DNA of 63,971 nucleotides, the filler included, from an uncultured Methanoregulaceae archaeon (GTDB lineage: Archaea; Halobacteriota; Methanomicrobia; Methanomicrobiales; Methanospirillaceae), in NCBI GenBank assembly GCA_964530035.1. It is 4 parts of 4 records of this genome, joined end to end, with 100 filler letters (N's around TTAATTAATTAA, not from the genome) between each part and the next. Parts side by side here need not be neighbours in the genome. Positions count along the whole stretch, not along the records: positions 19,924 to 39,357 come from CAZGXZ010000027.1; 3 more parts are not named here. One strand, 5' to 3'. Below the pieces are notes generated by a model that ran no database searches, was not told where the DNA came from, and saw only the letters and a list, made by a program, of their open reading frames with translations. Shown here piece by piece: positions 15,331-39,357 of the stretch. Made by a program: the position numbers and the translations under genes. Position 1 is the first letter of the stretch. Every line of letters begins with the position of its first letter.

Positions 15331-15646
15331 GGTCCACCTATAGGAGGGTTTGGGCTTTTTTGGAGATATGCCTATGTTATTCACGCCCGGGCTCTCCGTC
15401 ACCCGCGGCCTGCCCGATCCTCATGGTGTGACACGGCCCTTTGTCGTCTATGCCATGGAACTGCCTGGCCCATGCTGGTGGAAGAACGATAAAAAGGACG
15501 GAATAACAACACGAACCAGGGGAGGAAGACCCGGACTCCGGTAATCAGGTTTCCAAATGCTTCCTTTGGGGACCGGAAGGGACCACGAGGGTCACGACGG
15601 TGACCTTGATAGGGCAAAACGCCCTAATCGTTATCGGATTTACCCG

Positions 15647-16453
15647 ATGAAAATTGCCATTTCCGGAAAAGGGGGGACTGGGAAAACCTTCGTAGCCGGT
15701 TCACTCGCACGAGCCTTTTCAGAGGACGGCTACCGGACCCTGGCGCTTGATGCAGATACTTCACCGAACCTGGGGCTCACCCTTGGGATAAGCCCGGATG
15801 AACTCAGGGCGGTTACCCCTCTTTCCGAGAACCGTGACATGATCGGGGCAAAGACCGGGACTGATTACCCGGGTGTGTACCGACTCAGTTTTGAGGTTGA
15901 CGATATCGTCAGGGACGCGGTCATCCCAACTCCGGCAGGCCCAGGCCTCATTGTCATGGGAACGGTCCGATCAATGGGAGGCGGCTGTGCCTGCCCGGCG
16001 CATTCCCTGGTGCGGGAGGTGATGCGCCACCTCATCGTGGACCGGACCGAGGTTATCATCATGGACATGGAGGCGGGTGTCGAGCACCTCGGGAGGGGTA
16101 CGGCGGGAAGCGTCGACATGATGCTGGTGATAACCGACGCCACAGTGCGTGCTCTGGATGCTGCACGTTCCATTGTCAGCCTGGCAAGACAGGGTGGCAT
16201 ACCGAGGCTCGGCCTTGTCGGGAACAGGGTCCGTGATCTGCACCAGGAGGATATCATCAGGGCTGCCGCCAGGAGGATGGCGATTCCGGTGGATGGGATG
16301 ATCCCCTATGATCAGGCGGTGGCCGATGCAGAGGTCGACAGCCCGGCGACCTCTGTACTCCACGATTCACCCTCCAGGAAAGAGATTGACAGGATTAAGA
16401 AACGGATCCTTGACAGGCGTTTGGATGACGAACGGATGGTTGCAGGAGGCTGA
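15647..16453 (+). CDS. cooC: CooC/AcsF-family nickel-insertion ATPase (CODH maturation), copy 1
   Basis: MKIAISGKGGTGKT, DAD..PNL, GGGCACP, DMEAGVEHLGRGT; lies upstream of cdhA. Confidence 0.92.
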   Translation: MKIAISGKGGTGKTFVAGSLARAFSEDGYRTLALDADTSPNLGLTLGISPDELRAVTPLSENRDMIGAKTGTDYPGVYRLSFEVDDIVRDAVIPTPAGPGLIVMGTVRSMGGGCACPAHSLVREVMRHLIVDRTEVIIMDMEAGVEHLGRGTAGSVDMMLVITDATVRALDAARSIVSLARQGGIPRLGLVGNRVRDLHQEDIIRAAARRMAIPVDGMIPYDQAVADAEVDSPATSVLHDSPSRKEIDRIKKRILDRRLDDERMVAGG

Positions 16454-16456
16454 TGT

Positions 16457-17230
16457 ATGGAAACAGCAAAGACCCTCGTTACCATGGGAAGAGGCGGAAC
16501 GGGAAAGACAACGTTCGTCGCGCTGACGGCACAGTGCCTGATATCCGAAGGGCTCACCCCCCTCCTCCTCGTTGACCTTGACCCTGACCAGAGCCTTGGC
16601 GAGATGGTGGGAACAGACCTCCATGAACATGGGAAGCGCTCCATATCCGATATCGTCGGCGAGACATTCCTTGAACGCGGGGGGACGCTGTCAGGGGTCC
16701 CTCCCTCGGAGCGGATCGAGAGGGAGATCTGGGCCCGGGGGATGTACGAGGGAAGTGACTTCGATTTCATAGCGATAGGAACGAAATGGGTAGAGGGCTG
16801 CTACTGCCTGCCGGACGCCGCGGTGAAGCGGGCCCTGGCTGCCGTTTCCAAACAATACCGGTTTGTTCTCATCGATGCCCCCGCCGGCCTTGAACATCTC
16901 AACCGCAAGGTGACCACCTGGGTGGATGACATCTTCGACATCGTCGGGCCTTCCAAGAAATCACTTGACCATGTCCGGAGAGCATACCACCTGACACAAG
17001 AGCTTGGCATCCGGTATCGCCACTTTTATACGGTCGGAGGGTATGCCTTTCCCCGTCAGCTCGAAGGTATTGTCCGGGATGTCGAAGGGACGACCTACCT
17101 GGGGGCGATAGCCCCGGACCCGTCCGTAATGGATGCGGTGATAAACGGCAGGTCAATCCTCGGGCTGCCTAAGGATACGCCGGCGGCCAGGTCGGTCCAT
17201 GAACTCATGCAACGGGCCGGCTATCTCTGA
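16457..17230 (+). CDS. cooC: CooC/AcsF-family ATPase, copy 2
   Basis: GRGGTGKTT, DLDPDQSL, EGCYC, DAPAGLEHLNRK. Confidence 0.85.
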   Translation: METAKTLVTMGRGGTGKTTFVALTAQCLISEGLTPLLLVDLDPDQSLGEMVGTDLHEHGKRSISDIVGETFLERGGTLSGVPPSERIEREIWARGMYEGSDFDFIAIGTKWVEGCYCLPDAAVKRALAAVSKQYRFVLIDAPAGLEHLNRKVTTWVDDIFDIVGPSKKSLDHVRRAYHLTQELGIRYRHFYTVGGYAFPRQLEGIVRDVEGTTYLGAIAPDPSVMDAVINGRSILGLPKDTPAARSVHELMQRAGYL

Positions 17231-17355
17231 ATCGGGAAGGGGGCTTCTGTAATTTTTTTATCCATCTTTACGCGCACCTGCCGGGGGTAGCGGGTCATCC
17301 CGGAAGGAAACCTTTAGATGGTCTCCTTGGTACGTTATGATGGCAAAAGCGGGTC

Positions 17356-19734
17356 GTGGTTCTACTGGACAGGAATACTGTTTATCTTGAAGTTCAGGAG
17401 GTGGAAACCGATGCTGCAAGGATTAAGGACCTGCGCGTAACGATTGGATCCATCAGAGGCCTCACTCCTGCCGTTCCCCGCGGGCCGATGCCCATGCCTG
17501 GCCTAGGAACACTCAGAAGGTGGGACCATAGACTGCTCTCCCGGTACAGGCCTTTTTACATGCCTTTTTGCGAGCTCTGCTGTCTATGTACATTCGGGAA
17601 GTGCGACCTTTCAGGCGGACGGAAGGGTGCATGCGGAATCACCATGGATGCGCAGCAGTCCCGTATCGTCCTCCTTGCGTGCTGCATCGGTGCCGCGACA
17701 CACACCGGACATGCAAGGGAGATCCTGGACCATGTGGTTTCCCGGTTCGGGGAAGGTCACCCGCTTGATACAGGCGGCACCCAGATAGATATAACTGCGC
17801 CCATTACCCGCCTGGTATGTGGTTTTACACCTCGGACCGTCGGGGACCTGGACCGTGCCCTGCGGTACGCAGAAAACCAGATCACCCAGCTGCTTGCTGC
17901 AACCCATACCGGCCAGGAAGGCAATTGCCTTGACCTCGAGTCAAAGGTATTCCATGCAGGCATGGTCGACCATCTTGGGATGGAAATCGCTGACATCACC
18001 CAGGTATCATCGTACCCGTTTCCCAGGGCCGACGCCGATGCACCCCTGGTCGATCTCGGCATGGCATCGGTCGATACGAACAAGCCCGTCATACTGGTTG
18101 TCGGCCACAACGTGGTCCCTTCAGTCGGGATCCTTGAGTATGCACGGAAGAATGACCTCTCGGAATCCATCGAAGTCACCGGGATTTGCTGCACGGCTCT
18201 CGACCTGACGCGTTACAGTGAAAAAGCCAAGATCATCGGCCCGATCTCGTGGCAGCTCAGATATATCCGGAGCGGCATACCATCAGTTGTCGTGGTCGAC
18301 GAGCAGTGCGTCAGGACCGACCTCCCTGATGAGTGCCGTGCGGTCCGGGCACCTGTCATCGCCACCAGCGATAAAAACGCTCTCGGACTCCCTGACCGGA
18401 CGGGAGACCCTGCCGATGAGATCGTCGAAGACCTTGTATCAGGAAGGGTTCCCGGAGTGTTCCTGCATGACCCGGACCTCGTCGGAGAAGTGGCAGTAAA
18501 AACAGCAAAATATATTTTTGAGAGGAGAAAAGGCGTTACAGCCATACCCCCGTGTGAGGAGGTAGCAGCCGCTGCGGGGAAGTGCACCCATTGCTCCTTC
18601 TGCCAGCGGGCATGCCCCGTGGAACTGCCGCTCGTCGAGGTCATCCGGGAGGCTGGGACGGGCAATACCGGGGCCCTTGCCTCTCTCTATGACCTCTGTA
18701 TCGGCTGCGGGCGTTGCGAGTCGGCATGCCCGCGAGGGCTTCCACTGCACTCCTTCATAATATCTGCGTCCGGTGAACGGGTCAGGGACGAAAAGTTCAG
18801 CGTCCGCTCAGGGAGGGGGGCGATCTCCGATGTTGAGATACGCGAGGTCGGAGGTCCCATCGTCCTTGGAGAGATCCCTGGCATCGTCGCCTTTGTGGGG
18901 TGTTCCAATTTTCCCAGGGGAGGGTCGGAACTGGCAGCCATGTGCCGGGAGTTCGCACGCCGGCGTTTCATCGTCTGCACCTCGGGCTGTGCCGCGATTA
19001 CTGCGGGACTGTACAGGAATGAGGAGGGAAAAACCCTCTATGAGGAGTTTTCAGGGAGGTTTGAAGCCGGCGGGGTCCTCAACGTTGGTTCATGCGTCTC
19101 CAACGCGCATATCTCCGGAGCGGCGATCAAGATCGCAGCAATCTTTGCAAAGCGGGAACTTGATGGCAACTACGAGGAGATTGCAGATTACGTCCATAAC
19201 CGGGTGGGAGCGGTCGGTGTGGCCTGGGGCGCGATGTCTCAGAAAGCTGCGGCGATTGCAAGCGGTTTCTGGCGGCTCGGTATACCGGTGATCGTCGGAC
19301 CGCATGGATCGAAGTACCGGCGCATGCTCCTCGGGCGGGCCGACCATCCCGATGACTGGAAGGTGAACGACGCCCGTACCGGTAAGGAGGTCTTCACCGG
19401 GCCGGTCCCGGAACACCTCTTTGTCGCGGCTGAGACCGCTGAGGAGGCGATGGTCCTGGTCGCAAAACTCTCCATGAGGCCGAATGACACGACCCGCGGG
19501 AGATCCATCAAGTGTACGCATTACATCGACCTGTACAGACGGTTGTACGGGATCCTGCCGGAGGATATCCACCTGTTCATCAGGAACCCGGCCGATGTAC
19601 CTCTGACATTCAAGGACGAGATATGGGCCCACCTGGAAGCACACGACTGGAAGGAACAACCGGTCCCCGACCCGACCCTGCTCGAACCCAAGGGACGCCA
19701 GGTGAAGGGAGGCGAACGAAGTGACACGCCATGA
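17356..19734 (+). CDS. cdhA: Acetyl-CoA decarbonylase/synthase (CODH) alpha subunit
   Basis: CELCCLCTFGKCDL...GACG, GHN, GICCT, VDEQC, two ferredoxin motifs (CTHCSFCQRACP, CIGCGRCESACP), GCSN, GSCVSNAH, WGAMSQKAAAIA. Confidence 0.96.
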   Translation: MVLLDRNTVYLEVQEVETDAARIKDLRVTIGSIRGLTPAVPRGPMPMPGLGTLRRWDHRLLSRYRPFYMPFCELCCLCTFGKCDLSGGRKGACGITMDAQQSRIVLLACCIGAATHTGHAREILDHVVSRFGEGHPLDTGGTQIDITAPITRLVCGFTPRTVGDLDRALRYAENQITQLLAATHTGQEGNCLDLESKVFHAGMVDHLGMEIADITQVSSYPFPRADADAPLVDLGMASVDTNKPVILVVGHNVVPSVGILEYARKNDLSESIEVTGICCTALDLTRYSEKAKIIGPISWQLRYIRSGIPSVVVVDEQCVRTDLPDECRAVRAPVIATSDKNALGLPDRTGDPADEIVEDLVSGRVPGVFLHDPDLVGEVAVKTAKYIFERRKGVTAIPPCEEVAAAAGKCTHCSFCQRACPVELPLVEVIREAGTGNTGALASLYDLCIGCGRCESACPRGLPLHSFIISASGERVRDEKFSVRSGRGAISDVEIREVGGPIVLGEIPGIVAFVGCSNFPRGGSELAAMCREFARRRFIVCTSGCAAITAGLYRNEEGKTLYEEFSGRFEAGGVLNVGSCVSNAHISGAAIKIAAIFAKRELDGNYEEIADYVHNRVGAVGVAWGAMSQKAAAIASGFWRLGIPVIVGPHGSKYRRMLLGRADHPDDWKVNDARTGKEVFTGPVPEHLFVAAETAEEAMVLVAKLSMRPNDTTRGRSIKCTHYIDLYRRLYGILPEDIHLFIRNPADVPLTFKDEIWAHLEAHDWKEQPVPDPTLLEPKGRQVKGGERSDTP

Positions 19735-19923: not shown

Positions 19924-20403
19924 AAGCGCCTTGTCGTAGAATGTCAGGGCGTCGTTGTACTTCCCGAGTCCCTGGAGTGCCTTCGCCTTGCCGTAATAGG
20001 CAAGATAGGCATACTCGGGGTAGATCTTCACCGCCTCGTCGTAGGCCGTGATCGCCTCGTCGTACCTCTTGAGCCCGTACAGGGCGTTACCCTTCTCGTA
20101 CATGGCCTTGCCGTAGTTGGGGCTGATCGACAGGGCGGTGTCGAAGGCGGGGAGGGCACTTTCATACTCCTTCATCCCGTTGTAGGCGAAGCCTATCCCG
20201 GCCCAGGCCCTCGCCTGCTTCGGGTCGGCGGCGATCGAACCGTTGAAGGCAAGGATGGCCTCCTGGTACTTCCCCTGGTCGAGGAGTTCATTTCCCTTGG
20301 CAAGGAGGTTCCCTGCAGACTCTGCGGTCACGGAAACAGGCAAAAGGCAGGCCAGCACAAGACCTGCGGTCAGGATAATCAGGAGATACGGTCTCATTCC
20401 CAT
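19924..20403 (-). CDS. Secreted or membrane-anchored TPR protein, 3' truncated
   Basis: Signal peptide MRPYLLIILTAGLVLACLLPVSVTA followed by canonical TPRs (AWAGIGFAYNGMKEYESALPAFDTALSISP; AMYEKGNALYGLKRYDEAITAYDEAVKIYP). Confidence 0.88.
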
Positions 20404-20679
20404 CAGCTCCCCTCCCGGGCCAGCCGGCAGGGTGATGATGAGTAGTAGAGAGCACCTTTATATGAGCCTTTCCCGCCCCGGCAGGGTGGTCGAAATTCCT
20501 CCAGGATCCGCAGGACCCGGGACCGCTGTCCCCGATACGCATCAGAAAGTCCCCCGTACCTCCGGTCCCTTCCTTTCCGAACTGAACTCATCGGATTCTG
20601 GCGTTATCAGGCAGGCAGGCCCATAACCTTACCTTTTTATTGGAGGACAGCGTTTCCTGCATAGAGTAAGAACCGATCC

Positions 20680-21231
20680 ATGAGTGCCATGAGGATGACC
20701 GGTCTCGATGCAATCTCCTCCGTAAATACAGCTCCTGCAGGGATGGGAGATATTCCGCCGACAACCCCGGACCTTCCTCCTGCCAGCTCCGATACCATGG
20801 TCATTCTCCATAATCCTGACCGTTGCACCGGTTGCAGGCAGTGCATGACCGCATGTTCCTTTAAGAATTTCAATACGTACAACTACGACCTTTCGCTCTG
20901 CAGGGTGATCCGCGGCCCGGATAACGGGTTTGTGCGGATTCACTGCCATCACTGCACGGACCCGATGTGCCTTGCAGCCTGCCCGGTCAGTGCTATTTCC
21001 AAGGATCCCGGCACCGGGATCGTCACTATTGACAAGATGCGCTGCATAGGCTGCAGGGCATGTACCTGGGCGTGTCCGATCTCGGTGCCCCAGATGCAGC
21101 GGGGCCTGAAGGCGATGACCAAGTGCGACCTCTGCAAGGGAGACCCCAGCTGTATCAAGGTCTGTTCAGCCAGGGCGATACAGCTGGTGCCCCGGGCAGA
21201 AGCCCGTAACCTGAACAAAGTGCTGGAATGA
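20680..21231 (+). CDS. 4x[4Fe-4S] electron-transfer protein (HydN/HycB/CooF-like)
   Basis: Four Cys clusters: CTGCRQCMTAC, CHHCTDPMCLAACP, CIGCRACTWACP, CDLCKGDPSCIKVC. Start may be later (ATG 20797). Confidence 0.9.
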   Translation: MSAMRMTGLDAISSVNTAPAGMGDIPPTTPDLPPASSDTMVILHNPDRCTGCRQCMTACSFKNFNTYNYDLSLCRVIRGPDNGFVRIHCHHCTDPMCLAACPVSAISKDPGTGIVTIDKMRCIGCRACTWACPISVPQMQRGLKAMTKCDLCKGDPSCIKVCSARAIQLVPRAEARNLNKVLE

Positions 21232-21497
21232 CTGATATACACCCGTGGCGACGCCCGGTCAAGCTACCGGTTCCCGTGTCGGTAAAGCCACAGCTGATCA
21301 GGCATTTCTCAGTCGGTCTCCTCTATCCCCTCACCGATGAGACAAAGGAGTACAGGCGCAGGTCCGGGCTTGACCCGGTCCCGCCCACGGCCCACGGGTA
21401 CCCGGAGGCGGTACAGGACATCCAGACCCTGATCAAGGCCATGAAGGTTGACAGGAAAATCGGGCTCGATCTCGGTACCATGGAGTACGTGTATTAA
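21228..21497 (+). CDS. HdrC C-terminal-domain-only protein (no Fe-S cysteines)
   Basis: GLLYPLTDETKEYRRRSGLDPVPPTAHGYPEAVQDIQTLIKAMKVDRKIG resembles the HdrC C-terminal tail (G...P.....ELR...GL...PPT.H.YPEAL.EVQ.LIKA...D..IG). ATGA overlap with the upstream gene; stop abuts the hdrB start. Confidence 0.78.
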   Translation: MTDIHPWRRPVKLPVPVSVKPQLIRHFSVGLLYPLTDETKEYRRRSGLDPVPPTAHGYPEAVQDIQTLIKAMKVDRKIGLDLGTMEYVY

Positions 21498-22412
21498 ATG
21501 GCGGACCACCCGGATTCATCAAAAGATACTGCTGCAGCAAAATCCAGGTACTCCTTCTTCCTGGGCTGCGTGATGCCGGTCAAGATGCCATGGGCCGAAT
21601 CCGCCATCATGCACACGCTGCCACAACTCGGGGTCGACCTTGCGTATCTCAGAAAAGCCACCTGTTGTCCGCGGGCCGGGGTCTGGAAATCCGTGGATGA
21701 ACGGGTCTGGCTCACCCTGGCATCATACAACCTGCTCCAGGCTGAGGGTGACGGACGCGACGTCCTGGCCTCCTGCAATGGCTGCTACGTCACCCTGTAC
21801 GAGGCGAACAAGATTCTCAAAGAGGACCCGGAGAAATTAAATGAAATAAACGAATACCTGGCCAGCACCCACAACCACTACAATGCCTCTATCAGGGTCA
21901 GGCACCTCCTCGAGGCCCTGTACGAGGAGGTTGGAATAGAACGCATCAGGCGTGAATCAAGGAAAATTCCCCTTCGGGTAGCCCTCCACCCAGGCTGCCA
22001 CATGCGGATATTTGAAGACGGGAGGCTTGTCAGGTATTTTTCCGAACTGACCCAGGTCCTCGTTGATGAGGTTGTCCACTACGAAGCGGAGCAGATGTGC
22101 TGCGGCCTCCAGGCAAACCTTGCAGACCGGCAGTTTGCAACCTATGAACGCGCAAAAACAAAGTTTGACGCAATCAAAGCCCTGGACGTGGATGCCCTCG
22201 TGCTCGTCTGTTCCGGCTGCTATGACCAGTTTGAACGGGCAATCCAGGTATTGAAAAAGGAGATCGGGTACGAGTTCGGGATCCCGATTATCCACCTGGC
22301 AGAACTCCTTGCCCTTTCCCGCGGGACCGGCCCGGACGAATTCGGGATGCGGTTCCTGAGGACGGCACCGGTTGACGCCATCATCGCAAAATGGGAGAGT
22401 ACCCGGATATGA
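21498..22412 (+). CDS. hdrB: Heterodisulfide reductase subunit B-like (two CCG domains)
   Basis: FFLGC, TCCP, SCNGC, VRHLLE, HPGCH, MCCG, VCSGCYDQF, IPIIHLAELLAL; all ten cluster-ligand Cys are present. Confidence 0.9.
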   Translation: MADHPDSSKDTAAAKSRYSFFLGCVMPVKMPWAESAIMHTLPQLGVDLAYLRKATCCPRAGVWKSVDERVWLTLASYNLLQAEGDGRDVLASCNGCYVTLYEANKILKEDPEKLNEINEYLASTHNHYNASIRVRHLLEALYEEVGIERIRRESRKIPLRVALHPGCHMRIFEDGRLVRYFSELTQVLVDEVVHYEAEQMCCGLQANLADRQFATYERAKTKFDAIKALDVDALVLVCSGCYDQFERAIQVLKKEIGYEFGIPIIHLAELLALSRGTGPDEFGMRFLRTAPVDAIIAKWESTRI

Positions 22413-22690
22413 AGCCGTATTTCGTCGTCACGATGGTCATCCTTGTGATCAGTGTTGTCGGGGCTGTATTCCTGCCCGAGCTGAAAGGTTCACCCATGCT
22501 GCTTTTCCTGTTTGCAGAGCTTGCCTCGCTGGTGACGTTCTATGTTTTTTTCTCGGTGATCATCCCTACCCTGATCCCCGAGTACCGGAACATCGACGAG
22601 AACTTCAATTGCGGGGCAAGCGAGCTCTACCTTGCCAGGGACGAGATATACACACCTGAATCGCCGTTCGGGAGCGTTGACAATGAGTGA
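22409..22690 (+). CDS. Small two-TM membrane subunit (NuoA/MbhI-like loop motif)
   Basis: Two hydrophobic helices followed by ENFNCG, similar to the Y/F-x-CG loop of NuoA/MbhI. ATGA overlap with hdrB. Confidence 0.65.
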   Translation: MKPYFVVTMVILVISVVGAVFLPELKGSPMLLFLFAELASLVTFYVFFSVIIPTLIPEYRNIDENFNCGASELYLARDEIYTPESPFGSVDNE

Positions 22691-24242
22691 AAAAAGGCCC
22701 TCGCTTGAGGTCACCGAGGTCACTGCGGATACCATCCCTGCCGAGGTCTCATCGCTCCTGGACAGGGGGGCACGGATGATGTATGCCTCCGCGGTTGACA
22801 TGGGTGTCCCCGGGATCAGGATAGACTATTATTTCACGTTCGATGACGAGATCCCCGGCCGGAACCTGGCACTCCGGACGTTTGTAAACCGGAAAAAACC
22901 GGTCATCGAGTCTGTGACGCCGATCACGACCCAGGCGGACTGGGCGGAGAGAGAAATGATCGAGTTTCTGGGTGTGGATGTGAAGAACCATCCTGATCCC
23001 CGGCACCTCTGGCTGCCCCTCAACTGGGAGGACATGTATGCCAGTTCCCACCCGCAGCAGGACTCCCAGAGCGAGAGAATTGACACCGGCCCCACGGCCC
23101 ACCCCCCCCACCACAACAACTTAACCCAACCCCATTACCTGGTCCCGTACGGGCCATACCACCCTGCCCTGATCGAGAGCAATTACCTGAAGATGTCCGT
23201 CGGTGATGAGATCGTCAGGGATGCCGACCTCAAGCTCGGGTTCAACCACAGGAGCGTCATCAAGCTCATGGAGCGGCGCGACTACTACAAGGACCTGTTC
23301 CTGGCAGAGCGGATATGCGGGTTCTGTAATGTCCATCACACCATGTGCTTCTCCCAGGCGGTGGAAGAGATCGGAGGTATCGCGGTTTCAAGGAAGGCCC
23401 GCCACGTACGGACACTGCTCGGGGAGATGGAACGGATGAAGAGCCATCTCCTTGCCATCGGCCTGATGGGCGACCTGGCCGGGTTTAAGACCATGCTGAT
23501 GCATGCGGTCCGGATACGCGAAGATATCCTTGACGGCCTGGAAATCATATCGGGCCAGCGGATCAGCCATGGTCTCATCACCCTCGGGGGCATCAGGAAC
23601 GATGTCACTCCGGTCCATGCAGACATCATCCTTTCAAAACTGCAGAACCTCAAAAAAGAAGTGCCCGAATACTTTGACCAGTTCCTGGCAAACGATGTCT
23701 TCACCGGCAGGCTTCACAAGACCGGAACCCTTGCCCCGGAAGTGGCCCGGAAGTTCGGTGCATTGGGACCGATCGCCCGGGGAAGCGGGCTCTCTGTCGA
23801 TACCCGGAAAAACCTGCCGTATGCGGCGTATGAGGAGGTGGACTGGGACGTGGTTACTGAGAACGGGTGTGACTGTTTTGCACGGATGCGGGTACGGATG
23901 CGGGAAGTCCTCATGTCCCTGCATATCTGTGAGCAGTGCTGCGACGTGATACGCTCATCCCCGTCAGAAACGGTCCCGGTGGTGCATGAACTGCCCTGTG
24001 GCGAGGGGTTCTCAAGGACAGAGCCCCCGAGGGGCGAACTTATCTACCATGTCGCTTCAAACGGCACAAACACCCCGGACTTTGTCCGCCTCAGGGTTCC
24101 CACCTTCCCGAACGTCAGGATCATGCTGAACCTGATCAAGGGCAGCACCATCGGGGACGTGCCGGTGATCATCGGCAGTGTCGATCCCTGTTTCTCCTGT
24201 ACAGACCGTGTGACGACCGTCAGCCCACGAAAAACAGAATGA
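22683..24242 (+). CDS. Group 4 [NiFe]-hydrogenase large subunit, fused NuoC+NuoD type (HycE/HyfG-like)
   Basis: NuoC-like WAEREMIEFLGV...HPDPRHL; GPYHPAL; L1 ERICGFCNVHH; EPPRGE; RVPT; L2 DPCFSCTDR plus a short cleavable tail. Confidence 0.93.
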   Translation: MSEKRPSLEVTEVTADTIPAEVSSLLDRGARMMYASAVDMGVPGIRIDYYFTFDDEIPGRNLALRTFVNRKKPVIESVTPITTQADWAEREMIEFLGVDVKNHPDPRHLWLPLNWEDMYASSHPQQDSQSERIDTGPTAHPPHHNNLTQPHYLVPYGPYHPALIESNYLKMSVGDEIVRDADLKLGFNHRSVIKLMERRDYYKDLFLAERICGFCNVHHTMCFSQAVEEIGGIAVSRKARHVRTLLGEMERMKSHLLAIGLMGDLAGFKTMLMHAVRIREDILDGLEIISGQRISHGLITLGGIRNDVTPVHADIILSKLQNLKKEVPEYFDQFLANDVFTGRLHKTGTLAPEVARKFGALGPIARGSGLSVDTRKNLPYAAYEEVDWDVVTENGCDCFARMRVRMREVLMSLHICEQCCDVIRSSPSETVPVVHELPCGEGFSRTEPPRGELIYHVASNGTNTPDFVRLRVPTFPNVRIMLNLIKGSTIGDVPVIIGSVDPCFSCTDRVTTVSPRKTE

Positions 24243-24264
24243 TACCAGCTAGCGGAGGAGGACC

Positions 24265-25194
24265 ATGACAGGAATATTCTGGATAAACCCTCTCATTGCG
24301 TTTTGTGCGGGGATACTTCTCCTGTTCCTGCTCCGAAAACTCACCGCCCGGATCCAGTCCCGCAGGGGTCCGTTGGTTTCCGTTCCCCCGGCCTGGCAGG
24401 ATATCAACCGGACGAAAATCTTCCAGCCGCTCTATGATATCCTCAAGCTCTTCTCGAAAGACACCTTTATTCCAGATAAGGCAAGCTTGCTTTTCATAGT
24501 CGGTCCTGTCATGGCACTTGCCTGTGTCGTGTCCGCGACCTTTTTCATACCCATCGCCGGGATCGCGTTTGACTATTCATTCGGCCTGGTGGTCCTGGTT
24601 TACCTCCTGATGGGCGAGATCCTGTGCATCATTGTCGGAGGAGTCACGAGCGGGTCACTGTTTGCCGTGATCGGAGGGGTGAGGGAGATCGAACTGATGC
24701 TCACCAACGAGCTCCCCTTCATGCTCGGCACGTTTGCCCTTGCCATCTCGTACAACACCCTTTCCGTCAGCGAGATGATGGGGTTCAACCTCCTCCTGAA
24801 CCCGTTTGCAGCAATAGTCGTCTTTCTCTCGATCCTCGTGAAACTGCACATCAAACCGTTTGACATATCCGATGCGGAAGCCGAGATCGTGAGCGGCCTG
24901 ACCACGGAATACAGCGGGAAGCTGCTGGGGTTCCTCGAAGTCACCAGGCTGATGCTGGTCTTTGTCCTGGTCGCACTGTTTGCCGACCTGTTCCTGTGGG
25001 TGCCTTCATCCGGGATCATGGCCTGGGTGGTCTTTTTTACAGGGGTCACTGTCACGACGGTCCTCATCGCGGTTGTCCACTCCCTGTTCGGGCGGTTCAG
25101 GATCGATCAGGCAACCTGGTGGTTGCTCAGGGTGCCGCTGGTCCTCTCCGTGATTGCCGTGACCTGGGCCGCGGCAGGGAGGTACGTGGCATGA
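24265..25194 (+). CDS. Hydrogenase membrane subunit, NuoH/HycD family
   Basis: RKLTARIQSRRGP, QPLYDILKLFSK, PFDISDAEAEIVSGLTTEYSG, GRFRIDQA. Confidence 0.92.
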   Translation: MTGIFWINPLIAFCAGILLLFLLRKLTARIQSRRGPLVSVPPAWQDINRTKIFQPLYDILKLFSKDTFIPDKASLLFIVGPVMALACVVSATFFIPIAGIAFDYSFGLVVLVYLLMGEILCIIVGGVTSGSLFAVIGGVREIELMLTNELPFMLGTFALAISYNTLSVSEMMGFNLLLNPFAAIVVFLSILVKLHIKPFDISDAEAEIVSGLTTEYSGKLLGFLEVTRLMLVFVLVALFADLFLWVPSSGIMAWVVFFTGVTVTTVLIAVVHSLFGRFRIDQATWWLLRVPLVLSVIAVTWAAAGRYVA

Positions 25195-25874
25195 AACGGA
25201 TTACGAAGGTCCGGGTATTCGGGGGCCTTGCCTCAAGGCTCTTTAAAAAGCCGGTAACAGTCCGCAAATCATTCGGTTTTGTCGCATACCGGTCCCGGGG
25301 ACTGCCCAGGCGCGATGCTGTCAAATGTACAGGATGCGGCGCATGCAATGAGCGGTGCTCAAGCGGGGCAACGAGCGTCACGGACCATGAGGGCTTCCGC
25401 ACCATATCGATAGACAGCCTCAGGTGCCTCTTTTGTGCACGGTGTGCTGACGTCTGTCCGGAAAAGGCACTCGACCTCTTTTTTGGGACTGCCGGTACCG
25501 GAGATGGCCCGGCGGTGATCCCTTCCGGGGGTCCTGACATTACCGATCCGTGCAGCCTGTGTCTGGATGACCCTGATCTTGATTTGTCCGTGTCAGACCA
25601 GTTTGCGATAGCACTCAGCCTCTCCCATGAACGGGGGACGCACCAGATGACGGTCGATACCGTCCTGCCCCTGCAGCACTGCCGGGTCTGCGGGGCAGAG
25701 ATGCCGGTCACCGAAAAATTCCTGCAGGTGATTGCAGGCCGGATGCTTGACCGTCTTAAGCCCGAAACCGCTGAGGTGGTGAGGAAGGACCTTGAACTCT
25801 ACCTGACCGCATGCATCTCCTGCCGGCAGAAGTACAGCCTGGAATGGAATACCTACCCGAGGAAGTTTGTATGA
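25191..25874 (+). CDS. Hydrogenase Fe-S subunit, NuoI/HycF family, with extra C-terminal Cys motifs
   Basis: KPVT...RGLP...CTGCGACNERC, CLFCARCADVCP; extra CSLC, CRVCG and CISC. ATG 25191 overlaps the upstream stop. Confidence 0.88.
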   Translation: MKRITKVRVFGGLASRLFKKPVTVRKSFGFVAYRSRGLPRRDAVKCTGCGACNERCSSGATSVTDHEGFRTISIDSLRCLFCARCADVCPEKALDLFFGTAGTGDGPAVIPSGGPDITDPCSLCLDDPDLDLSVSDQFAIALSLSHERGTHQMTVDTVLPLQHCRVCGAEMPVTEKFLQVIAGRMLDRLKPETAEVVRKDLELYLTACISCRQKYSLEWNTYPRKFV

Positions 25875-26290
25875 GTCTTGCAGGCACCTTCATAAAAAAA
25901 TCCCCGTGGGTGTACCATGCGCACGCCGGGGGCTGCAACGGGTGTGACCTCGAAATAGTAGCCTGTTTCGGCCCGCGGTACGACCTTGAGCGCCTGGGCA
26001 TAAAACTGGTCGCATCCCCCCGTTTTGCAGACATCCTGCTGGTCACCGGTCCGGTACCCCTTCATACGAAACCGTTTCTTGAACGGATCTATGCCCAGAC
26101 ACCGACCCCCAAACGGGTCATCGCCATGGGGGCCTGCAGCTGTTCGGGAGGGGTATTTGTCGATGACGAGAACTACTCCATTGCCGGCCCTGTCGAAAAC
26201 ATCCTCCCGGTTGACGTACGGATCCCGGGATGCCCGCCAAAACCCGAGGCTATCGTGGATGGAATTCTCAGGGCGATGAGGATGTTCTGA
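25871..26290 (+). CDS. Group 4 hydrogenase small subunit, NuoB/HycG family
   Basis: KSPWVYH..GGCNGCDLE, SPRFADILLVTGPV, GACSCSGGVF, VDVRIPGCPPKPEAI. Confidence 0.94.
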   Translation: MSLAGTFIKKSPWVYHAHAGGCNGCDLEIVACFGPRYDLERLGIKLVASPRFADILLVTGPVPLHTKPFLERIYAQTPTPKRVIAMGACSCSGGVFVDDENYSIAGPVENILPVDVRIPGCPPKPEAIVDGILRAMRMF

Positions 26291-26438
26291 CCATGACAGG
26301 AAGGTCCCTCCAGGGTGAAATGCAGGTATCCGGTGATTTCCCTCCCGGAATACACCATGATGGAGCTTACTGTGGGTGCTTCCACGAGGATTGCCGGTCA
26401 CCGCCCGGGAGTCTCCCGCCTGGTACGGAAGGTTAGAA

Positions 26439-27911
26439 ATGCCTGATTACTATGCCCTCGTCCCGGTCCTCCTCCCCATTGCCGGAGGGCTCCTCATCTC
26501 CCTGGCACGGGGGTTCCCGGAGAAAATCCAGCGGGGCCTGATCATAGGCCTCATGGCTTTTCTCCTTGTGATGAACCTCGCCTATTTCATTGCACTGGAG
26601 GGTGGGATGGTCAGCCCGGCAGCAGTCGGGCCGATCGTCCTTGACGCCCCCGGGGCATTCATCTCATGTCTCGTTGCCTTCCTCGGAGTGCTGGTGCTGG
26701 TTTATTCGCTCATCTATCGCAGGGACAACCATTTTGATGCGACCTTCTTCATTCTTTACTTTGTCCTTGCCGGCACGATGTGCGGCATGGCCTGCACCTA
26801 TAACGTGCTGGTCATGCTGGTGTTCCTTGAAGCAGCGACCGTGACAAGTGCCGTCCTCATCCTGTTCGGGAAGACAAAAAAGGCGATAAAAGCCACGTAT
26901 ATCTACCTTGCCCTCAGCATCGTCGAAGTAATCCTGGTGATCTACGGTTCATTCATCCTGTACGGCAGCACCGGGACGCTGGACCTCAGGTTCATGGACA
27001 TCTCCCGGCTGCCTCCAGGGGACACGTTTTTGCTCGCACTCCTCTTCCTGTTCGGCTTTGGGACAAAGGCAGGACTTCTGCCGCTTGGGATCATCTGGCT
27101 CCCTCCGGCCCATGCCGATGCTCCCGCACCGATCAGTGCAACGATGTCGGGAATCCTGATCAAGGCCAGCGTCATCGCGATGGTCAAGGCGATGTACCCG
27201 TTCTTCCTGGTATCCGGGGCCTCCACGCTCGTGCTGATCGTCGCCGGCCTGGGCGTGCTCAACATGTTCGCCGGGGTGATCATGGCCCTGCTGTCCATGA
27301 ATATCAAGCGGCTGCTCGCGTACCACAGCGTCAGCCAGATGGGCTATATCGTCATGGGCTTCGGCTTTGCAGTCCCCATGGGGATCTACGGGGCGCTGTT
27401 CCACGTCATGAACCACATGCTGTTCAAGGGCTGCCTGTTCCTTATCACCGGTGCGCTGCTGCTGCGGGTGAACACGCGGCAGATCCACAAGATGGGCGGC
27501 CTCCTCAAGAAGATGCCGGTCACGGGGATATGCTTCCTGACAGCTTCGCTCGCCATGTCGGGCCTGCCGTCCCTCAACGGTTTTCTCAGCAAGGAGGCCA
27601 TCTACGAGGGCTCGGTAGAGGCGGGCTTCCCCGTCCTGTTCACCATAGCGGGGCAGGGCTTCACCATGTTCTCCATTTTCGGGTGGGCCACGAGCATCCT
27701 GACCTTCATCTGCCTTGTACACGCATTTATCGTGATCTTCCTCGGGAAGCCGAAGGGCGACCTCACCGACGTGAAGGATCCGCCGGCGTACATGCTGGTC
27801 CCGATCGTGGTCCTGGCCTCGCTCTGCGTCATCATCGGCCTGTTCCCGGGCTTGGTGTCCGCTTCCCTCCATTATATCGCGGAAATGGTATTCCTGATGA
27901 AAGGAGGATGA
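26439..27911 (+). CDS. Antiporter-like ion-translocating subunit (HyfB/NuoL/MrpD family)
   Basis: Many TM helices; FLEAAT, GFGTKAGLLPLGIIWLPPAHADAPAPISATMSG, KRLLAYHSVSQMG, NHMLFKGCLFL, GLPSLNGFLSKE. Confidence 0.92.
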   Translation: MPDYYALVPVLLPIAGGLLISLARGFPEKIQRGLIIGLMAFLLVMNLAYFIALEGGMVSPAAVGPIVLDAPGAFISCLVAFLGVLVLVYSLIYRRDNHFDATFFILYFVLAGTMCGMACTYNVLVMLVFLEAATVTSAVLILFGKTKKAIKATYIYLALSIVEVILVIYGSFILYGSTGTLDLRFMDISRLPPGDTFLLALLFLFGFGTKAGLLPLGIIWLPPAHADAPAPISATMSGILIKASVIAMVKAMYPFFLVSGASTLVLIVAGLGVLNMFAGVIMALLSMNIKRLLAYHSVSQMGYIVMGFGFAVPMGIYGALFHVMNHMLFKGCLFLITGALLLRVNTRQIHKMGGLLKKMPVTGICFLTASLAMSGLPSLNGFLSKEAIYEGSVEAGFPVLFTIAGQGFTMFSIFGWATSILTFICLVHAFIVIFLGKPKGDLTDVKDPPAYMLVPIVVLASLCVIIGLFPGLVSASLHYIAEMVFLMKGG

Positions 27912-27945
27912 AAAAATCCCGGACTCTTTCTCCACGGACACGTCG

Positions 27946-28443
27946 GTGCCGGAAGATTTCCAGACGTTACTCTCCACGAGGATTGGCAACGTTGATCCCG
28001 GCCGGATCGTGTTTGTCGGTGTCGGCAACCGGATGCTGGGCGATGACGGCATCGGTCCCGCGCTTCTCGACCTTCTGAAAGAGGCTGTGCCCCATGCTGT
28101 CGATGCAGGGAATACCCCGGAGGATTACACGGGGGTTATCCGGCGTCCTGCCCCGTCTGTCATCATCGTTCTTGATGCCGCTGACTGGGGGGCGGAACAG
28201 GGCCGTTTCAGGATCATAGAAACGGGAGATGTGTCCCAGGTCAGGATGGGGGTTCACAAGATTTCGCTTGAGGTCCTCATGGAGTACCTCCGGGAGGAGA
28301 CCGGTGCGGATGTTTTTATCATCGGGGTCCAGCCAGTAAATATCGCACCGTCACCAGGCCTTTCTCCCGGGTCACGCCGGGCTGTCCGGGAGTGTGCCGA
28401 AATCATTCTCTCGGTGCTGAAACGTTCACAGGACGAACGATGA
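27946..28443 (+). CDS. hycI: Hydrogenase maturation protease (HycI family)
   Basis: VGVGNRMLGDDGIGP, DAGNTPE, IIVLDAAD, HKISL, IIGVQP. Confidence 0.9.
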   Translation: MPEDFQTLLSTRIGNVDPGRIVFVGVGNRMLGDDGIGPALLDLLKEAVPHAVDAGNTPEDYTGVIRRPAPSVIIVLDAADWGAEQGRFRIIETGDVSQVRMGVHKISLEVLMEYLREETGADVFIIGVQPVNIAPSPGLSPGSRRAVRECAEIILSVLKRSQDER

Positions 28444-28548
28444 TGTTCGTCCAGTATTCCCTGGCCATGACCCCTGCCTGTTGTTCATGACGGCCAGTCA
28501 GACATCTTTACCGTACGATGATATGGAAAGACACCATAGAACCAGAAC

Positions 28549-28833
28549 ATGGATGCCCTGGCCTTGCTTCGCGAACACGCACCGGTGCTCCAAAAGAGAT
28601 TCGGAGTGGCCAGGATCGGCATATTCGGTTCTTATATCAGGGGAGAAGAACAGCCCGATAGCGATATAGATGTCCTTGTTGCCTTTCAAAAAGATCAAAA
28701 AACCTTGGAGCATTTCATGGACTGTAAATCCTATCTGGAGGACCTTTTTGGGAGAAAAGTAGACCTTGTCATGGAGAGTGCCATAAAGGAACAGTTGAAA
28801 AAAACGATATTGAACGAGGTTCGCTATGCATAG
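28549..28833 (+). CDS. MNT-family minimal nucleotidyltransferase (MntA-type antitoxin)
   Basis: FGVARIGIFGSYIRGEEQPDSDIDVLV, LEDLFGRKVDLV (GS...DxD motif). Confidence 0.92.
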   Translation: MDALALLREHAPVLQKRFGVARIGIFGSYIRGEEQPDSDIDVLVAFQKDQKTLEHFMDCKSYLEDLFGRKVDLVMESAIKEQLKKTILNEVRYA

Positions 28834-29192
28834 GACATCACTTCATCTCCTTACCGACATACGGGACGCAGGTGGAGCCATCTAGGACTATACCAGGGGG
28901 ATTGTCCTATGAAGCATTTCCCGAAGACCAGAAGAAACCGGATGCCGGGTTATGTAATTTTGAGGGACTCGGCGAGGCTTCCAAAAACCTGCCTGATGAG
29001 TTGAAATCATAGTACCCCCATGGTGCGGGGAAGAGACTTGCCGGGCTTCTGGATATCGTGGCCCATGGATACTTCAGGGTGGACTACGAGTTGCTTTTTG
29101 GAGTGATAACGAAAACATTGCCCGGTTCCGGGTATGAAAGTGCAATCATTGAAGATGAGGAATTAAACCGGGAACGCAAGAACAGTTCATAA
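28826..29192 (+). pseudogene. HEPN/DUF86 (HepT-type) toxin pseudogene
   Basis: Manual translation: MHRTSLHLLTDIRDAGGAI*DYTRG[frameshift]LSYEAFPEDQKKPDA...LGEASKNLPDELKS*YPHGAGKRLAGLLDIVAHGYFRVDYELL. Stops at 28883 and 29010, one frameshift, and the R-x4-H motif reads LDIVAH. Confidence 0.85.
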
Positions 29193-29210
29193 CATCCTCA
29201 AAGAACAGGT

Positions 29211-29427
29211 GGCTGCCGCCCCCCAAACCCCCTGCATACGATAGCCAGGGCAAGCCGTTGTCGATTCCCTCACCAGGGTTGTTTGTGGTATGGCTTGTGG
29301 GGTCTTTTTGTCTTCAGCGGGTTTTTTTTCAGATCGAAATAGGAAGGAAAGGCCGTGAGACCGCCGCCGGGGCGCCCTTCGGGGGCGGCGGTGTATCTTT
29401 CCGGGGGTGTGGGGGCAAAGCCCCCAC
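29211..29427. repeat. GC-rich REP/MITE-like element with inverted hairpin ends
   Basis: Left arm GGCTGCCGCCCCCCAAACCCCC and right arm GGGGGTGTGGGGGCAAAGCCCCC are imperfect inverted copies. Internal IR CCGCCGCC(29361)...GGCGGCGG(29391). 29211-29256 matches 63926-63971 at 44/46 nt. Confidence 0.75.
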
Positions 29428-29833
29428 TGAAGGGTTGATGGGTAGGGGATACCAGGAATATTGATACTCCTGGTAATTCGGCCGGGTCTGGAAACATTCT
29501 GAAAGATTGGAGAAATATCAGGTCTCGTTTTTCCGATCATGCAGGTTACCTGGCAATCATGTCAAGCAAGGAAGAATTATTCGTTAAAATTGAGCCTTTT
29601 TGGCTCTGGGAAATTCCCCTCTTCGGATATTTTTTTTTCACGCAGTTATTAGAGATCTCCCATCAGCTGCAATTCCGATCACAGGATTTCTACAGTGCCT
29701 TGTTTTCTCGTTTTCATTCCAGGGACTGCCCTTTTTCCGACAGCCCTGCCGACAGATACACCCCCTGTCATCAGCAGCCCACAGCAACCGCTTTCACCCC
29801 GGCAGCGCCACAGGTACAGAGTGACCGGATACC

Positions 29834-30514
29834 ATGGACCTGTTGAAAACAGCCTTTGACGCCCTCGCCTCCCGGTTCGACGACCAGCGGAAGTATATCA
29901 TCCCCTCGATGGACGAGTTCTACCAGGCGGCGGCCTGGGCGGCCATCCACGACGGCACAGCGCCTTCCGTCCTCGACATCGGGGCCGGGACCGGGCTCCT
30001 TGCGGCGCTCGTCCTGGAACGCTACCCTGAGGCCTCCGTCACCCTCCTCGACGTGTCCGAGGGGATGCTCGCGGTCGCCAGGCAGAGGTTCGCCGGCAAC
30101 CGGAACGTCACCTACGTCACCGCGGACTACAGCACGTCCGGCCTCCCGGGCACGTACGACATGGTCATATCGGCCCTCTCCATCCACCACCTCCCCCATG
30201 AAGAAAAACGGGCCCTCTACGGAAGGGTCTTTACAGCCCTCAACCCGGGCGGGGTCTTCGTGAACGCCGACCAGGTCCTCGCGGAGAGCCCGTGGCTCGA
30301 GGAGCAGTACCGGCAGTACTGGGACGGCTTCCTTGCAAAAGGGGCCCTTCCCGCTGAGGAACTGAAACTCATCAAAAAACGTCGGGACACCTTCGACCTG
30401 AACTGGCACCTTGACGGACAGCTCTCCTGGCTCAGGGAGTGTGGCTTCTCGGACGTCGATGTCATTTACAAGAACAGGATATTCGTCGTGTTCATGGGAA
30501 GAAAGCCCTCGTAG
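29834..30514 (+). CDS. Class I SAM-dependent methyltransferase
   Basis: VLDIGAGTG, LLDVSEGML, YDMVISALSIHHL, LNPGGVFVNAD. Confidence 0.92.
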   Translation: MDLLKTAFDALASRFDDQRKYIIPSMDEFYQAAAWAAIHDGTAPSVLDIGAGTGLLAALVLERYPEASVTLLDVSEGMLAVARQRFAGNRNVTYVTADYSTSGLPGTYDMVISALSIHHLPHEEKRALYGRVFTALNPGGVFVNADQVLAESPWLEEQYRQYWDGFLAKGALPAEELKLIKKRRDTFDLNWHLDGQLSWLRECGFSDVDVIYKNRIFVVFMGRKPS

Positions 30515-30626
30515 GTCCCCTGTTTTTCTCACGCACCACTCCTTTCCCGCTCCCTGGGGCAGGGACGGGCCCTGGCCGGGCGGTGAAGGGAAGAAGGAAT
30601 GCCAATAACCCCCCTCTTAAAAAGGA

Positions 30627-31760
30627 TCAAAGGGAGAAGCCTGACTTCGAGGCGTACTGCTTCGAGAGCTTCGCGACCATCCCGGCAACCGTCGCCTTAT
30701 CGGTATAGACCAGCGTCGCGGACGGAGCGGTGCCTCCCTCACGGCCTTCCCTGATCGAGCCTCCGAACTCCGTCCCGAAGGTACCCATCGCATACCCCGC
30801 CCCGGATGAAGCGTCCGGTTTCACGTCGAAGTTGTAGTTCAGCTCTGCGGGGGTATCAGCACTTGCCGCGACCATCCGGACCTGTGCGGACGACGACTGG
30901 GCCGCCGAGGTCACCCCCTGGCTCATCGACTTCGCATACACCACGTTGCAGAACGCAGGGTAGACCTCGCTCTCCGACGGTCCGAACGGGCAGGCGACCA
31001 CGTCGGCGGTCGCAGTGGGAGATCCCATGTTGTCGGTCGCGATCATCTCTGCAGTCTGGGCGACGCTCCCGGTGTCCGCGTCGGTTGCATAGGTGAACGT
31101 CTTCGTTGATTCGACGTTGAACAGCCCGGCCGCCTTGTTCCGGGTGTCAGGGTCGAAAGTCTTCGTCTCGGAGATGTAACCCCCGTTTGTCTCGGTCATC
31201 TCGGAGTAGGCGGTGGTCGCACGGACCTCGTTGGGGTCGAGGATGCCGGTGTGGAGTCCGCCGTGGCTTGCGATAACCCTGGTGGGGCCGCCTCCCGTGA
31301 GGAACTCACCCATCTCTTCGAAGGTCGCCGTGCCGCAGGACGAGTCGAGGGCTATGAGGCCGAGGCTGGCCTTCGGGACAGTGAGGCCCGTCAGGAACAC
31401 CATGGTGATGGTCCCGCCCTCCCCGTCATCGAACACCAGGGGGAACGATTCGTCAGAGCCCCCGGCATGTGCAAGGTTCTGGCTGAACTGGGCATAGTCC
31501 TCCCCTGACATCGGGTAAAAGGACTCATCACTGCTGGTGTACACGTAGAGGTCCGACCCACCGCCCGGGGCCGGGTCGAAGCCCGTCGTCCACTGCAGCG
31601 CCTGGGAACCGGAGTACGACCCCGTCGCCTCGATGGCTGATGCCATGGAAAAGACCTGGTTTTCGGCGGTCTGGTTCGGGAGGCGGTCGGCGGCTCCCGC
31701 CATGGTAAGGACGGCGAGTGCCGCGAGGAATACGGTTATCATGAGGGTTTTCCGCGTCAA
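30627..31760 (-). CDS. Secreted homologue of the Methanospirillum major sheath protein (MspA/SH-like)
   Basis: Signal peptide from TTG 31760 (AGGAG RBS): MTRKTLMITVFLAALAVLTMAGAA, then DRLPNQTAENQVF, ETNGG...K.FD...NK..GL.NVE..K.FTY, CPF...YPAFCNVV.AKS, PAELNY...V.PD.SSG.G.A.GT..T.FGGSI.E.R and terminal SGFSL. These match my recollection of the M. hungatei sheath protein. Confidence 0.75.
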   Translation of the reverse strand: MTRKTLMITVFLAALAVLTMAGAADRLPNQTAENQVFSMASAIEATGSYSGSQALQWTTGFDPAPGGGSDLYVYTSSDESFYPMSGEDYAQFSQNLAHAGGSDESFPLVFDDGEGGTITMVFLTGLTVPKASLGLIALDSSCGTATFEEMGEFLTGGGPTRVIASHGGLHTGILDPNEVRATTAYSEMTETNGGYISETKTFDPDTRNKAAGLFNVESTKTFTYATDADTGSVAQTAEMIATDNMGSPTATADVVACPFGPSESEVYPAFCNVVYAKSMSQGVTSAAQSSSAQVRMVAASADTPAELNYNFDVKPDASSGAGYAMGTFGTEFGGSIREGREGGTAPSATLVYTDKATVAGMVAKLSKQYASKSGFSL

Positions 31761-31807
31761 GGTGGGTCTCCTGTAAGGTGGGAAGTACAAGGGACGGTTT
31801 TTATCCC

Positions 31808-31820
31808 GTTTTTATAAAAG
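31808..31820 (-). promoter_or_regulatory. Probable TATA box for the sheath-protein gene
   Basis: Minus strand reads CTTTTATAAAAAC about 50 nt upstream of the start codon, in an otherwise GC-rich region. Confidence 0.5.
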
Positions 31821-31910
31821 CGTGCTGGAATAGAGATGCGTCCTGCCGGATGGCAGGCGGGAACCCTCCGGTCATGGACCGGGTCTGTGGAAAAAAGGGC
31901 GTTTCCGCCC

Positions 31911-37699: not shown

Positions 37700-37789
37700 A
37701 CTATCCAATAAGGAGATGGAATGATTAAAATCTATGGAAGAGGTGGGTATGTGTTTTTCCTGAGCGGAGCGATGGTGCCCTGACCCTCG

Positions 37790-39356: not shown

Positions 39357-39357
39357 T

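Follow-up and report, generated by a model that had tools for sequence, protein, structure and literature searches.

The stretch of DNA analyzed here, the window, is 63,971 nucleotides long and consists of four contigs of an uncultured Methanoregulaceae archaeon (GenBank assembly GCA_964530035.1) joined by N. On one of them, contig C27 (window 19924-39357), an operon was found that combines a heterodisulfide reductase (Hdr) module with a [NiFe]-hydrogenase of group 4 that is bound to the membrane. Ten intact genes without internal stops were located on the + strand between 20680 and 28443, and their content, order, coordinates and common orientation were as given in the original prediction. 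The features are listed below, with the evidence for each in brackets.

20680..21231, +: 4x[4Fe-4S] electron-transfer subunit, DmsB/HycB/CooF-like (Pfam Fer4_11 and NCBIfam DmsB/HybA-type matches)
21228..21497, +: HdrC C-terminal piece without Fe-S cysteines (TIGR03290 positions 95-143 of 144)
21498..22412, +: divergent HdrB, disulfide reductase with two CCG motifs (profile, invariant ligands, fold model)
22409..22690, +: two-helix membrane subunit (alignment, 2 transmembrane helices predicted)
22683..24242, +: group 4 [NiFe]-hydrogenase large subunit, NuoC+D fusion (ERICGFC, DPCFSC, four Ni/Fe cysteines, cleavable tail)
24265..25194, +: NuoH-like membrane subunit (PF00146; 8 transmembrane helices by hydropathy)
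25191..25874, +: NuoI/HycF-like 2x[4Fe-4S] subunit with extra C-terminal CxxC pairs
25871..26290, +: NuoB-like small subunit, CxxC type (PF01058; Cys 22, 25, 89, 121)
26439..27911, +: MrpD/MbhH-type antiporter-like subunit (best solved relatives 6cfw_H and 7qru_D)
27946..28443, +: HycI-type hydrogenase maturation protease (PF01750, TIGR00072 above cut-off)
20491..28548, no strand: extent of the cassette, in place of which the same-genus genome G001 has ~316 unrelated bp

The successive gaps between the genes were -4, 0, -4, -8, 22, -4, -4, 148 and 34 bp, respectively, with 6 of the 9 junctions overlapping or abutting. The four Ni-binding cysteines expected in the large subunit and the tail after its second motif were confirmed, and the four L1/L2 metal cysteines, the CxxC small subunit and the NuoH and antiporter partners place the enzyme among the group 4 [NiFe]-hydrogenases. 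The 4x[4Fe-4S] subunit, in which 16 cysteines were invariant in 26/26 aligned rows, takes the place of the Fe-S part of HdrC, while the HdrC piece aligned with the tail of the source genome's own HdrC and is a probable adaptor for HdrB. In the two-helix subunit, Glu37 and an F-x-C-G motif were invariant across 19 rows, including 2 of the Ehd type described below. No family was found for it in Pfam, NCBIfam or PDB sequences, Atlas matches were below 0.9, and the predicted template modelling score (pTM) of its model was 0.48; EchA was considered as a relative and rejected, the comparison having given only 4% probability. Family scans of the operon's proteins gave no match to hdrA, mvhD, fdh or cytochrome. 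This absence, which had been predicted, applies to the operon and not to the genome, where a separate canonical hdrC-hdrB precedes the beginning of an hdrA that runs into the end of contig C46; this HdrA we take to be such from its motif. A sigma-70 promoter scan was uninformative, the host being an archaeon, and four sequencing runs, probably of DNA, gave short low-depth pieces, none shown bridging a junction, which were not used as evidence.

HdrB-linked group 4 hydrogenases have been published as proposals under the names Ehd, Ehe, Drh and Ehg (accessible parts of PMC9723716, PMC6046458 and PMC12700198), and Ehd, Ehe and Drh have been placed in a distinct cluster (PMC9723716, accessible text). 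Drh of Methanocellales goes back to Lyu and Lu 2015, as cited in PMC6046458 and PMC9723716, and Ehd of Methanomethylicia to Borrel et al. 2019, as cited in PMC9723716. A 'Drh' match in PMC6604955 was an author's initials. An HdrB scan of species genomes returned 15 loci and missed the Methanocella group. Eight were Drh-type, with 67-86% HdrB identity (Methanoculleus palmolei DSM 4273, Methanospirillum lacunae Ki8-1, another five Methanospirillum records and one that carries the label Methanobacteriota), and seven were Ehd-type, with 40-45%. The Methanocella group emerged from a large-subunit search, in which the identity to named relatives was 87% for M. palmolei, 68-83% for Methanospirillum and 58-65% for Methanocella. 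Family f14 scored best for 6/6 proteins named Methanocella or Methanocellaceae and was therefore taken as Methanocella-type. The first eight genes stood in the window's order in 11/11 f14 loci fetched (L086 with two reading-frame breaks), and the ten-gene order was kept in 11/11 other Methanomicrobiales loci wherever genes are covered; the co-conservation of hdrB with the hydrogenase genes was supported. In M. conradii, drh corresponds to Mtc_0479-0486 (annotation, PMC6046458 supplement, in part).

Trees were built on subsets (64 large subunits, including 24 of the 120 listed by the large-subunit search, and 19 loci for a five-gene tree). In the large-subunit tree, the window was found inside a 33-row Drh clade with a support of 100; in the five-gene tree, the Drh clade had 100/100. 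The window's sister there was M. palmolei, and Ehd stood apart; a clade of the window with 3 Ehd rows was rejected by the approximately unbiased test (p-AU 0.002). On these comparisons, the operon is an orthologue of Methanocellales Drh. The resemblance to Ehd noted originally stood in that all nine structural genes have Ehd counterparts, but Ehd is not the closest relative: the large subunit groups with Methanocella Drh, and HdrB identity is 40-45% to Ehd compared to 66-74% to Drh. The second Ni motif was DQC in 7/7 Ehd-type large subunits (L024-L030) and DPC in Drh, a simple marker separating the two.

Drh shares with the window the identical eight-gene order, a large-subunit identity of 56-66% and the DPCxSC motif with its tail. 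It differs in being published without an antiporter, whereas the window has both antiporter and protease in the operon, and in being near-universal in Methanocellales, whereas the window type is found patchily in Methanomicrobiales and is probably mobile. Ehd has the same nine subunit kinds, including the antiporter, in one cluster with HdrBC, the same core order (FeS, HdrC tail, HdrB, large subunit, NuoH, NuoI, NuoB) and the same proposed function. In contrast to the window, its large subunit and antiporter are only 34-37% and 25-29% identical, respectively, the gene order begins with the two-helix and antiporter genes, the Ehd loci compared gave no protease, and the hosts are methyl-reducers. 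Ehg of Nezhaarchaeia also combines a group 4 hydrogenase with HdrB and an antiporter and is expressed in a culture (PMC12700198, accessible text), but HdrA, MvhD and Fdh belong to it as well, and its clade is a separate one close to group 4g (PMC9723716, accessible text); it was set apart by this description. The soluble HdrABC of hydrogenotrophic methanogens (5ODC, 7BKB) shares the HdrB fold, the cluster ligands and the HdrC tail, whereas the operon lacks HdrA and flavin, its HdrC piece is without an Fe-S domain, and the substrate loop is altered. Ech, Mbh and formate hydrogenlyase share the Complex-I-like core and an antiporter-like subunit, whereas the redox partner module of the window is HdrB; a separate Ech is present in the same genome, and Ech large subunits form their own clade and have no tail.

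[quoted passage not shown] Near the core, an antiporter was present in only 1/11 f14 loci (15-20 kb fetched). However, the window antiporter has a 54-65% identical orthologue in 14/15 f14 genomes, located 41-176 kb from hdrB in four one-contig genomes. A HycI-type protease adjoins it at 13/16 f14 antiporter loci, as in the window, and in one f14 genome an antiporter copy lies directly next to nuoB, facing it. The Drh large subunit has a protease-requiring tail, whereas Ech large subunits end at the motif. This HdrB is present in 13 of 401 genomes of the order; the antiporter is present in those 13 and in a 14th, G391, whose contig breaks inside the operon. Among the f14 genomes, 14/15 have each of the two and 13 have both. 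In a 256-genome phylum sample, the antiporter matched only the source genome, 14/15 f14 genomes and G562; HdrB was found in 16/401 genomes of a phylum sample, likewise the source genome, 14/15 of f14 and G562. The species-genome scan and the order tallies overlap and are not additive. In G562, a distant relative from another family, the genes for HdrB, the core and the antiporter are spread over three loci (C107, C7 and C8; L142, L144 and L146); its HdrB part lies near mtr-like genes, named by eye. Drh-type antiporters formed one clade apart from the EchA and Ehd antiporters, with E131, K210 and K385 conserved in 23/23 rows and K242 in 19/23. Identities of antiporter and HdrB were correlated (rho 0.73-0.86), but neither this nor a Fisher test was used as evidence, the genomes being kin. 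Because the antiporter is part of the operon and has an orthologue in 14/15 f14 genomes, the published pump-less description of Drh appears, on these sequence comparisons, to be wrong. The genes present, the integrity of their motifs, their orthology and the co-occurring antiporter are established.

The source genome has 2.36 Mb in 229 contigs and a completeness score of 86%. PyrG on the neighbouring contig C26 was 97% identical to its counterpart in G001, with 75% for the genome of M. lacunae, 71% for that of M. palmolei, 62% for one from f14 and 53% for one from Methanomethylicus, a ranking that places the host in Methanomicrobiales, as predicted. The operon contig is also well binned. In tetranucleotide composition, 96/185 genome chunks were farther from the genome mean than the operon, whose distance was about the median. 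A ~500-bp repeat at ~29200-29700, possibly a non-autonomous mobile element, gave 78 matches on 58 contigs, itself included (~72-80% identity among the best), bearing out a repeat common to C27 and other contigs. For the gene at 30627-31790 (-), G001 has an orthologue of 90% identity, and matches were found in 13/18 family genomes compared to 0/12 genomes of other families, and C27 and G001 share long syntenic stretches of 81-91%. The genome also encodes Ech, an Frh-like hydrogenase, two acetyl-CoA synthase types, acetyl-CoA synthetase, a membrane pyrophosphatase and what are presumably MtrA-like motifs.

On balance, we favor the reading that the ten genes probably form one membrane complex, a complete Drh, acting as an ion-coupled H2:disulfide oxidoreductase beside HdrABC and Ech. 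As to physical assembly, ion coupling, direction, substrate and a role at low H2, we infer the following, the wire and membrane arm being modelled on the established architecture of Mbh, Ech and formate hydrogenlyase. H2 would be oxidized at the [NiFe] site, and electrons would pass from the NuoB-like to the NuoI-like subunit, to the 4x[4Fe-4S] subunit and on to HdrB, which would be held by the HdrC tail and would reduce a disulfide, most likely that of coenzyme M and coenzyme B (CoM-S-S-CoB). NuoH, the two-helix subunit and the single antiporter subunit would export ~1 H+ or Na+ per two electrons. Disulfide reduction would thereby be uncoupled from ferredoxin reduction, with Drh reducing and pumping and Ech spending ions on ferredoxin; the net yield per methane would be lower, but the cell could operate at H2 levels that stall strict bifurcation.

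Candidate values for the standard redox potential (E0') of the heterodisulfide are -143, -200 and -281 mV. At 10 Pa H2, electron transfer from H2 to the heterodisulfide was calculated to yield -29.5, -18.5 and -2.8 kJ/mol, respectively. As 12-17 kJ was taken as the cost per ion, pumping would be feasible only for -143 and -200 mV. At -143 mV and 10 Pa, the sum for bifurcation was +10 kJ/mol compared to -29.5 kJ/mol for the transfer from H2 to the disulfide. Drh brings no automatic energy gain, since bypassing bifurcation would leave ferredoxin to the ion-consuming Ech; without bifurcation, a CO2 reducer would depend on Ech for its reduced ferredoxin, and the route would thus trade yield for reach. 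In a syntrophic coculture of M. conradii, eight drh genes were upregulated by log2 0.87-1.93, with ech at -0.37 to +0.16 (PMC6046458 supplement, accessible part), a rise that fits such a trade. A wider proposal, that Drh is an ion pump whose antiporter is encoded at another locus in Methanocellales and, with Ech, provides an HdrA-free chemiosmotic reduction of CoM-S-S-CoB, a 'low gear' for very low H2 passed among methanogen lineages as a mobile 8-kb cassette, is tentative and may well not hold.

Several observations weigh against the favored reading. At an E0' of -281 mV, the -2.8 kJ/mol available is too little for one ion. The accessible parts of PMC9723716, PMC6046458, PMC12700198 and bioRxiv 2022.08.18.504445 contain no biochemical assay of Ehd, Ehe, Drh or Ehg. 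The co-occurrence counts come from related genomes, which are kin and not independent, and no match for this HdrB was found in 388/401 genomes of the order. K242 is lost in 4/12 f14 antiporters. The presumed M. conradii antiporter, Mtc_0296, was assigned from the gene order antiporter, protease, acylphosphatase, GAPDH and is annotated as 'putative membrane bound hydrogenase', with a log2 of fragments per kilobase per million (FPKM) of 7.4-7.5. In the coculture its increase was just 0.61, short of the 1 that the paper set as threshold, the protease gene next to it was unchanged (0.11, false discovery rate 0.46), and unrelated neighbours rose to the same degree, by 0.63 and 0.88 (all from the accessible PMC6046458 supplement), so co-regulation with drh is not demonstrated. 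McrA and MvhD were not found in searches of the 86%-complete source genome; MvhD was present in 4/4 other carrier genomes examined. The remaining points of this kind concern the substrate site of HdrB. Its canonical loop CCGAGGGVR reads CCGLQANLA in the operon, within a low-confidence stretch of the model. Of the six coenzyme contacts, R14, G46, G198, R201, F233 and R240 (numbering of PMC13261682, accessible text, mapped through 9sfi_C), three are altered, with A206, A209 and G240 replacing G198, R201 and F233, respectively. The HdrB gene is labelled 'X-S-S-X' reductase by Liu and Lu (PMC6046458 supplement, accessible part), and Culexarchaeia, without full synthesis of CoM and CoB, carry relatives (PMC9723716, accessible text).

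In HdrB, ten cysteines and His168 were invariant in 28/28 rows, with all cluster ligands kept, and the model had a predicted local distance difference test score (pLDDT) of 86 and template modelling scores of 0.84-0.85 to 5odc_B and 7bkb_B. HdrB scored 226.7 bits, below the TIGR03288 equivalog cut-off of 345.15, and was ~35% identical to the canonical HdrB of the source genome. Three contacts are kept (R14 as K29, G46 as G61 and R240 as R247), including two of the three CoB-binding basic positions (K29 and R247). R211, which is basic in 21/21 Drh rows, could substitute for R201. With three contacts kept and three altered, CoM-S-S-CoB is the likely but not certain substrate. The same ion-coupled complex might instead reduce another disulfide, such as CoM or CoB homodisulfides or another thiol carrier, and serve in redox repair after oxygen stress. 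The remodelled loop, with the invariant and family-specific R59, R170, D210 and Y242, the published label, the relatives in archaea with incomplete CoM/CoB synthesis and the description of M. lacunae as a moist-soil species (PMC11346949, accessible text) all speak for such a substrate, but the kept contacts, the basic R211 and the rise of drh under anoxic syntrophy (PMC6046458, accessible part) speak against it, and we regard it as unlikely, although it is the strongest of the alternatives.

It is rather improbable that the complex runs in reverse, with an ion gradient driving the conversion of CoM-SH and CoB-SH to heterodisulfide and H2, and HdrABC then making reduced ferredoxin in an anaplerotic, biosynthetic role linked with acetyl-CoA synthase. 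Group 4 hydrogenases usually evolve H2, and the reaction would be near equilibrium at low H2 if E0' were about -281 mV. Moreover, acetyl-CoA synthase genes adjoin the operon in 6/12 Methanomicrobiales loci, with two gene types among them, and in a single f14 locus; a gene for a membrane pyrophosphatase is next to it in 6/12 Methanomicrobiales loci. Acetyl-CoA synthase clusters flank or enclose the operon in L017, L019, L090, L092, L134, L091 (2077-19765) and L143 (1885-13890); in L091 it lies between cdhC-cdhD-cdhE-RACo on one side and a cooC-like pair and acetyl-CoA synthetase on the other. However, neither neighbour is present at the window (C27 has no acetyl-CoA synthase neighbour), L016 or L135, and no acetyl-CoA synthase gene was seen in the three f14 core loci, of 11, whose flanks were listed. 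Acetyl-CoA synthase occurs in 252/401 order genomes and 197/220 family genomes, so that its presence in the same genome is uninformative, and anaplerosis is already offered by Ech.

The CooF-like anatomy of the 4x[4Fe-4S] subunit and the acetyl-CoA synthase/CO dehydrogenase, acetyl-CoA synthetase and pyrophosphatase neighbours in L091 and other loci could also mean that this subunit docks CO dehydrogenase or ferredoxin, making the complex a CO/ferredoxin:disulfide or CO:H2 oxidoreductase for CO use or acetyl-CoA cleavage. Drh has been called closest to the Coo hydrogenase (PMC6046458, accessible part), and Ehe adjoins cdhA (PMC9723716, accessible text). However, the cassette has no CO dehydrogenase catalytic gene and probably moved without one, and in every Drh and Ehd locus but G562 the HdrC tail immediately follows the 4x[4Fe-4S] gene, making this a poor alternative. 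The published model in which Drh is merely membrane-anchored and does not pump, the antiporter being a passenger or working alone (PMC9723716, accessible text), agrees with the distant f14 antiporter loci and the loss of K242, but is highly improbable given an antiporter found inside the Methanomicrobiales operon, with co-occurrence in three lineages, linkage to the maturation protease and a clade apart from EchA and Ehd antiporters.

Within the order, the carriers were 9/25 genomes of genus g15, 1-2/103 of g6 and 1/48 of g23. The sole carrier outside the family of the source genome, G241, is a one-contig genome, 71% complete and 5% contaminated. The TPR and nucleotidyltransferase genes on either side are ~316 bp apart in G001 compared to ~8.06 kb in the source genome. 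The operon was 84% identical in DNA to that of M. palmolei over 7,783 bp, compared to only 71% for the PyrG protein. Horizontal spread is the simplest reading, with a loss in G001 as an alternative, and the operon is probably mobile; no target-site duplication was seen at the cassette ends and no transposase among the operon genes. The g6 sequence grouped with f14 by FastTree; by IQ-TREE, a single Methanomicrobiales clade had support of 53/99 and 88/92 and was neither established nor rejected, and a single f14 clade was not rejected (p-AU 0.4). In the antiporter tree, Methanomicrobiales were nested inside f14, a placement resting on one long outgroup. A methyl-reducing lifestyle was rejected as the reason for the operon, with MtaB, the one methyltransferase searched, in 0/5 carriers, and so was secondary-alcohol use as a general explanation, with TIGR03557 above cut-off in 3/5 carriers and not in the source genome.

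Textbook heterodisulfide reduction proceeds by soluble flavin bifurcation or by respiration through cytochrome and methanophenazine. A third way, a pumping hydrogenase wired directly to HdrB, has so far been proposed from genomes only. The operon supplies what may be a complete parts list for Drh; it counters the pump-less model, pointing to the gene missing from it in Methanocella-type genomes, and it places the full Drh unit in cultured strains, M. lacunae Ki8-1 and M. palmolei DSM 4273 (M. lacunae appears as DSM 22751 in the accessible text of PMC11346949). The 8-kb cassette is self-contained and brings its own protease, so that membrane assays or its expression in a model methanogen could put the question directly to the test. 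If the proposal is true, a 'low gear' would keep CO2-reducing methanogens making methane at very low H2 without cytochrome or methanophenazine. No report of Drh in Methanomicrobiales or of a Drh antiporter was found in the literature searched, which was largely without subscription journals; further supplements, Lyu and Lu 2015 and Borrel 2019 may mention either.

Further features were noted in passing. In M. palmolei (L016:533-7071), the operon follows an IS605-type gene and genes for ATP sulfurylase, a sulfite-reductase-like protein and a Cys/Met pyridoxal phosphate enzyme. Two forms of the acetyl-CoA synthase beta subunit, long (~670 aa) and short (~465 aa), are encoded in the source genome (G000), on C84 and C105, and the contig preceding C27 ends with two CooC-like ATPases and a CO dehydrogenase alpha subunit (window 15557-19734). 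The gene at 30627-31790 (-) is predicted to encode a secreted-looking protein of a multi-copy family with 15 matches within the source genome. Two paralogous HExxH membrane proteins with long low-complexity N-terminal parts are encoded further along C27, at 31911-33512 and 38211-39338 (-).

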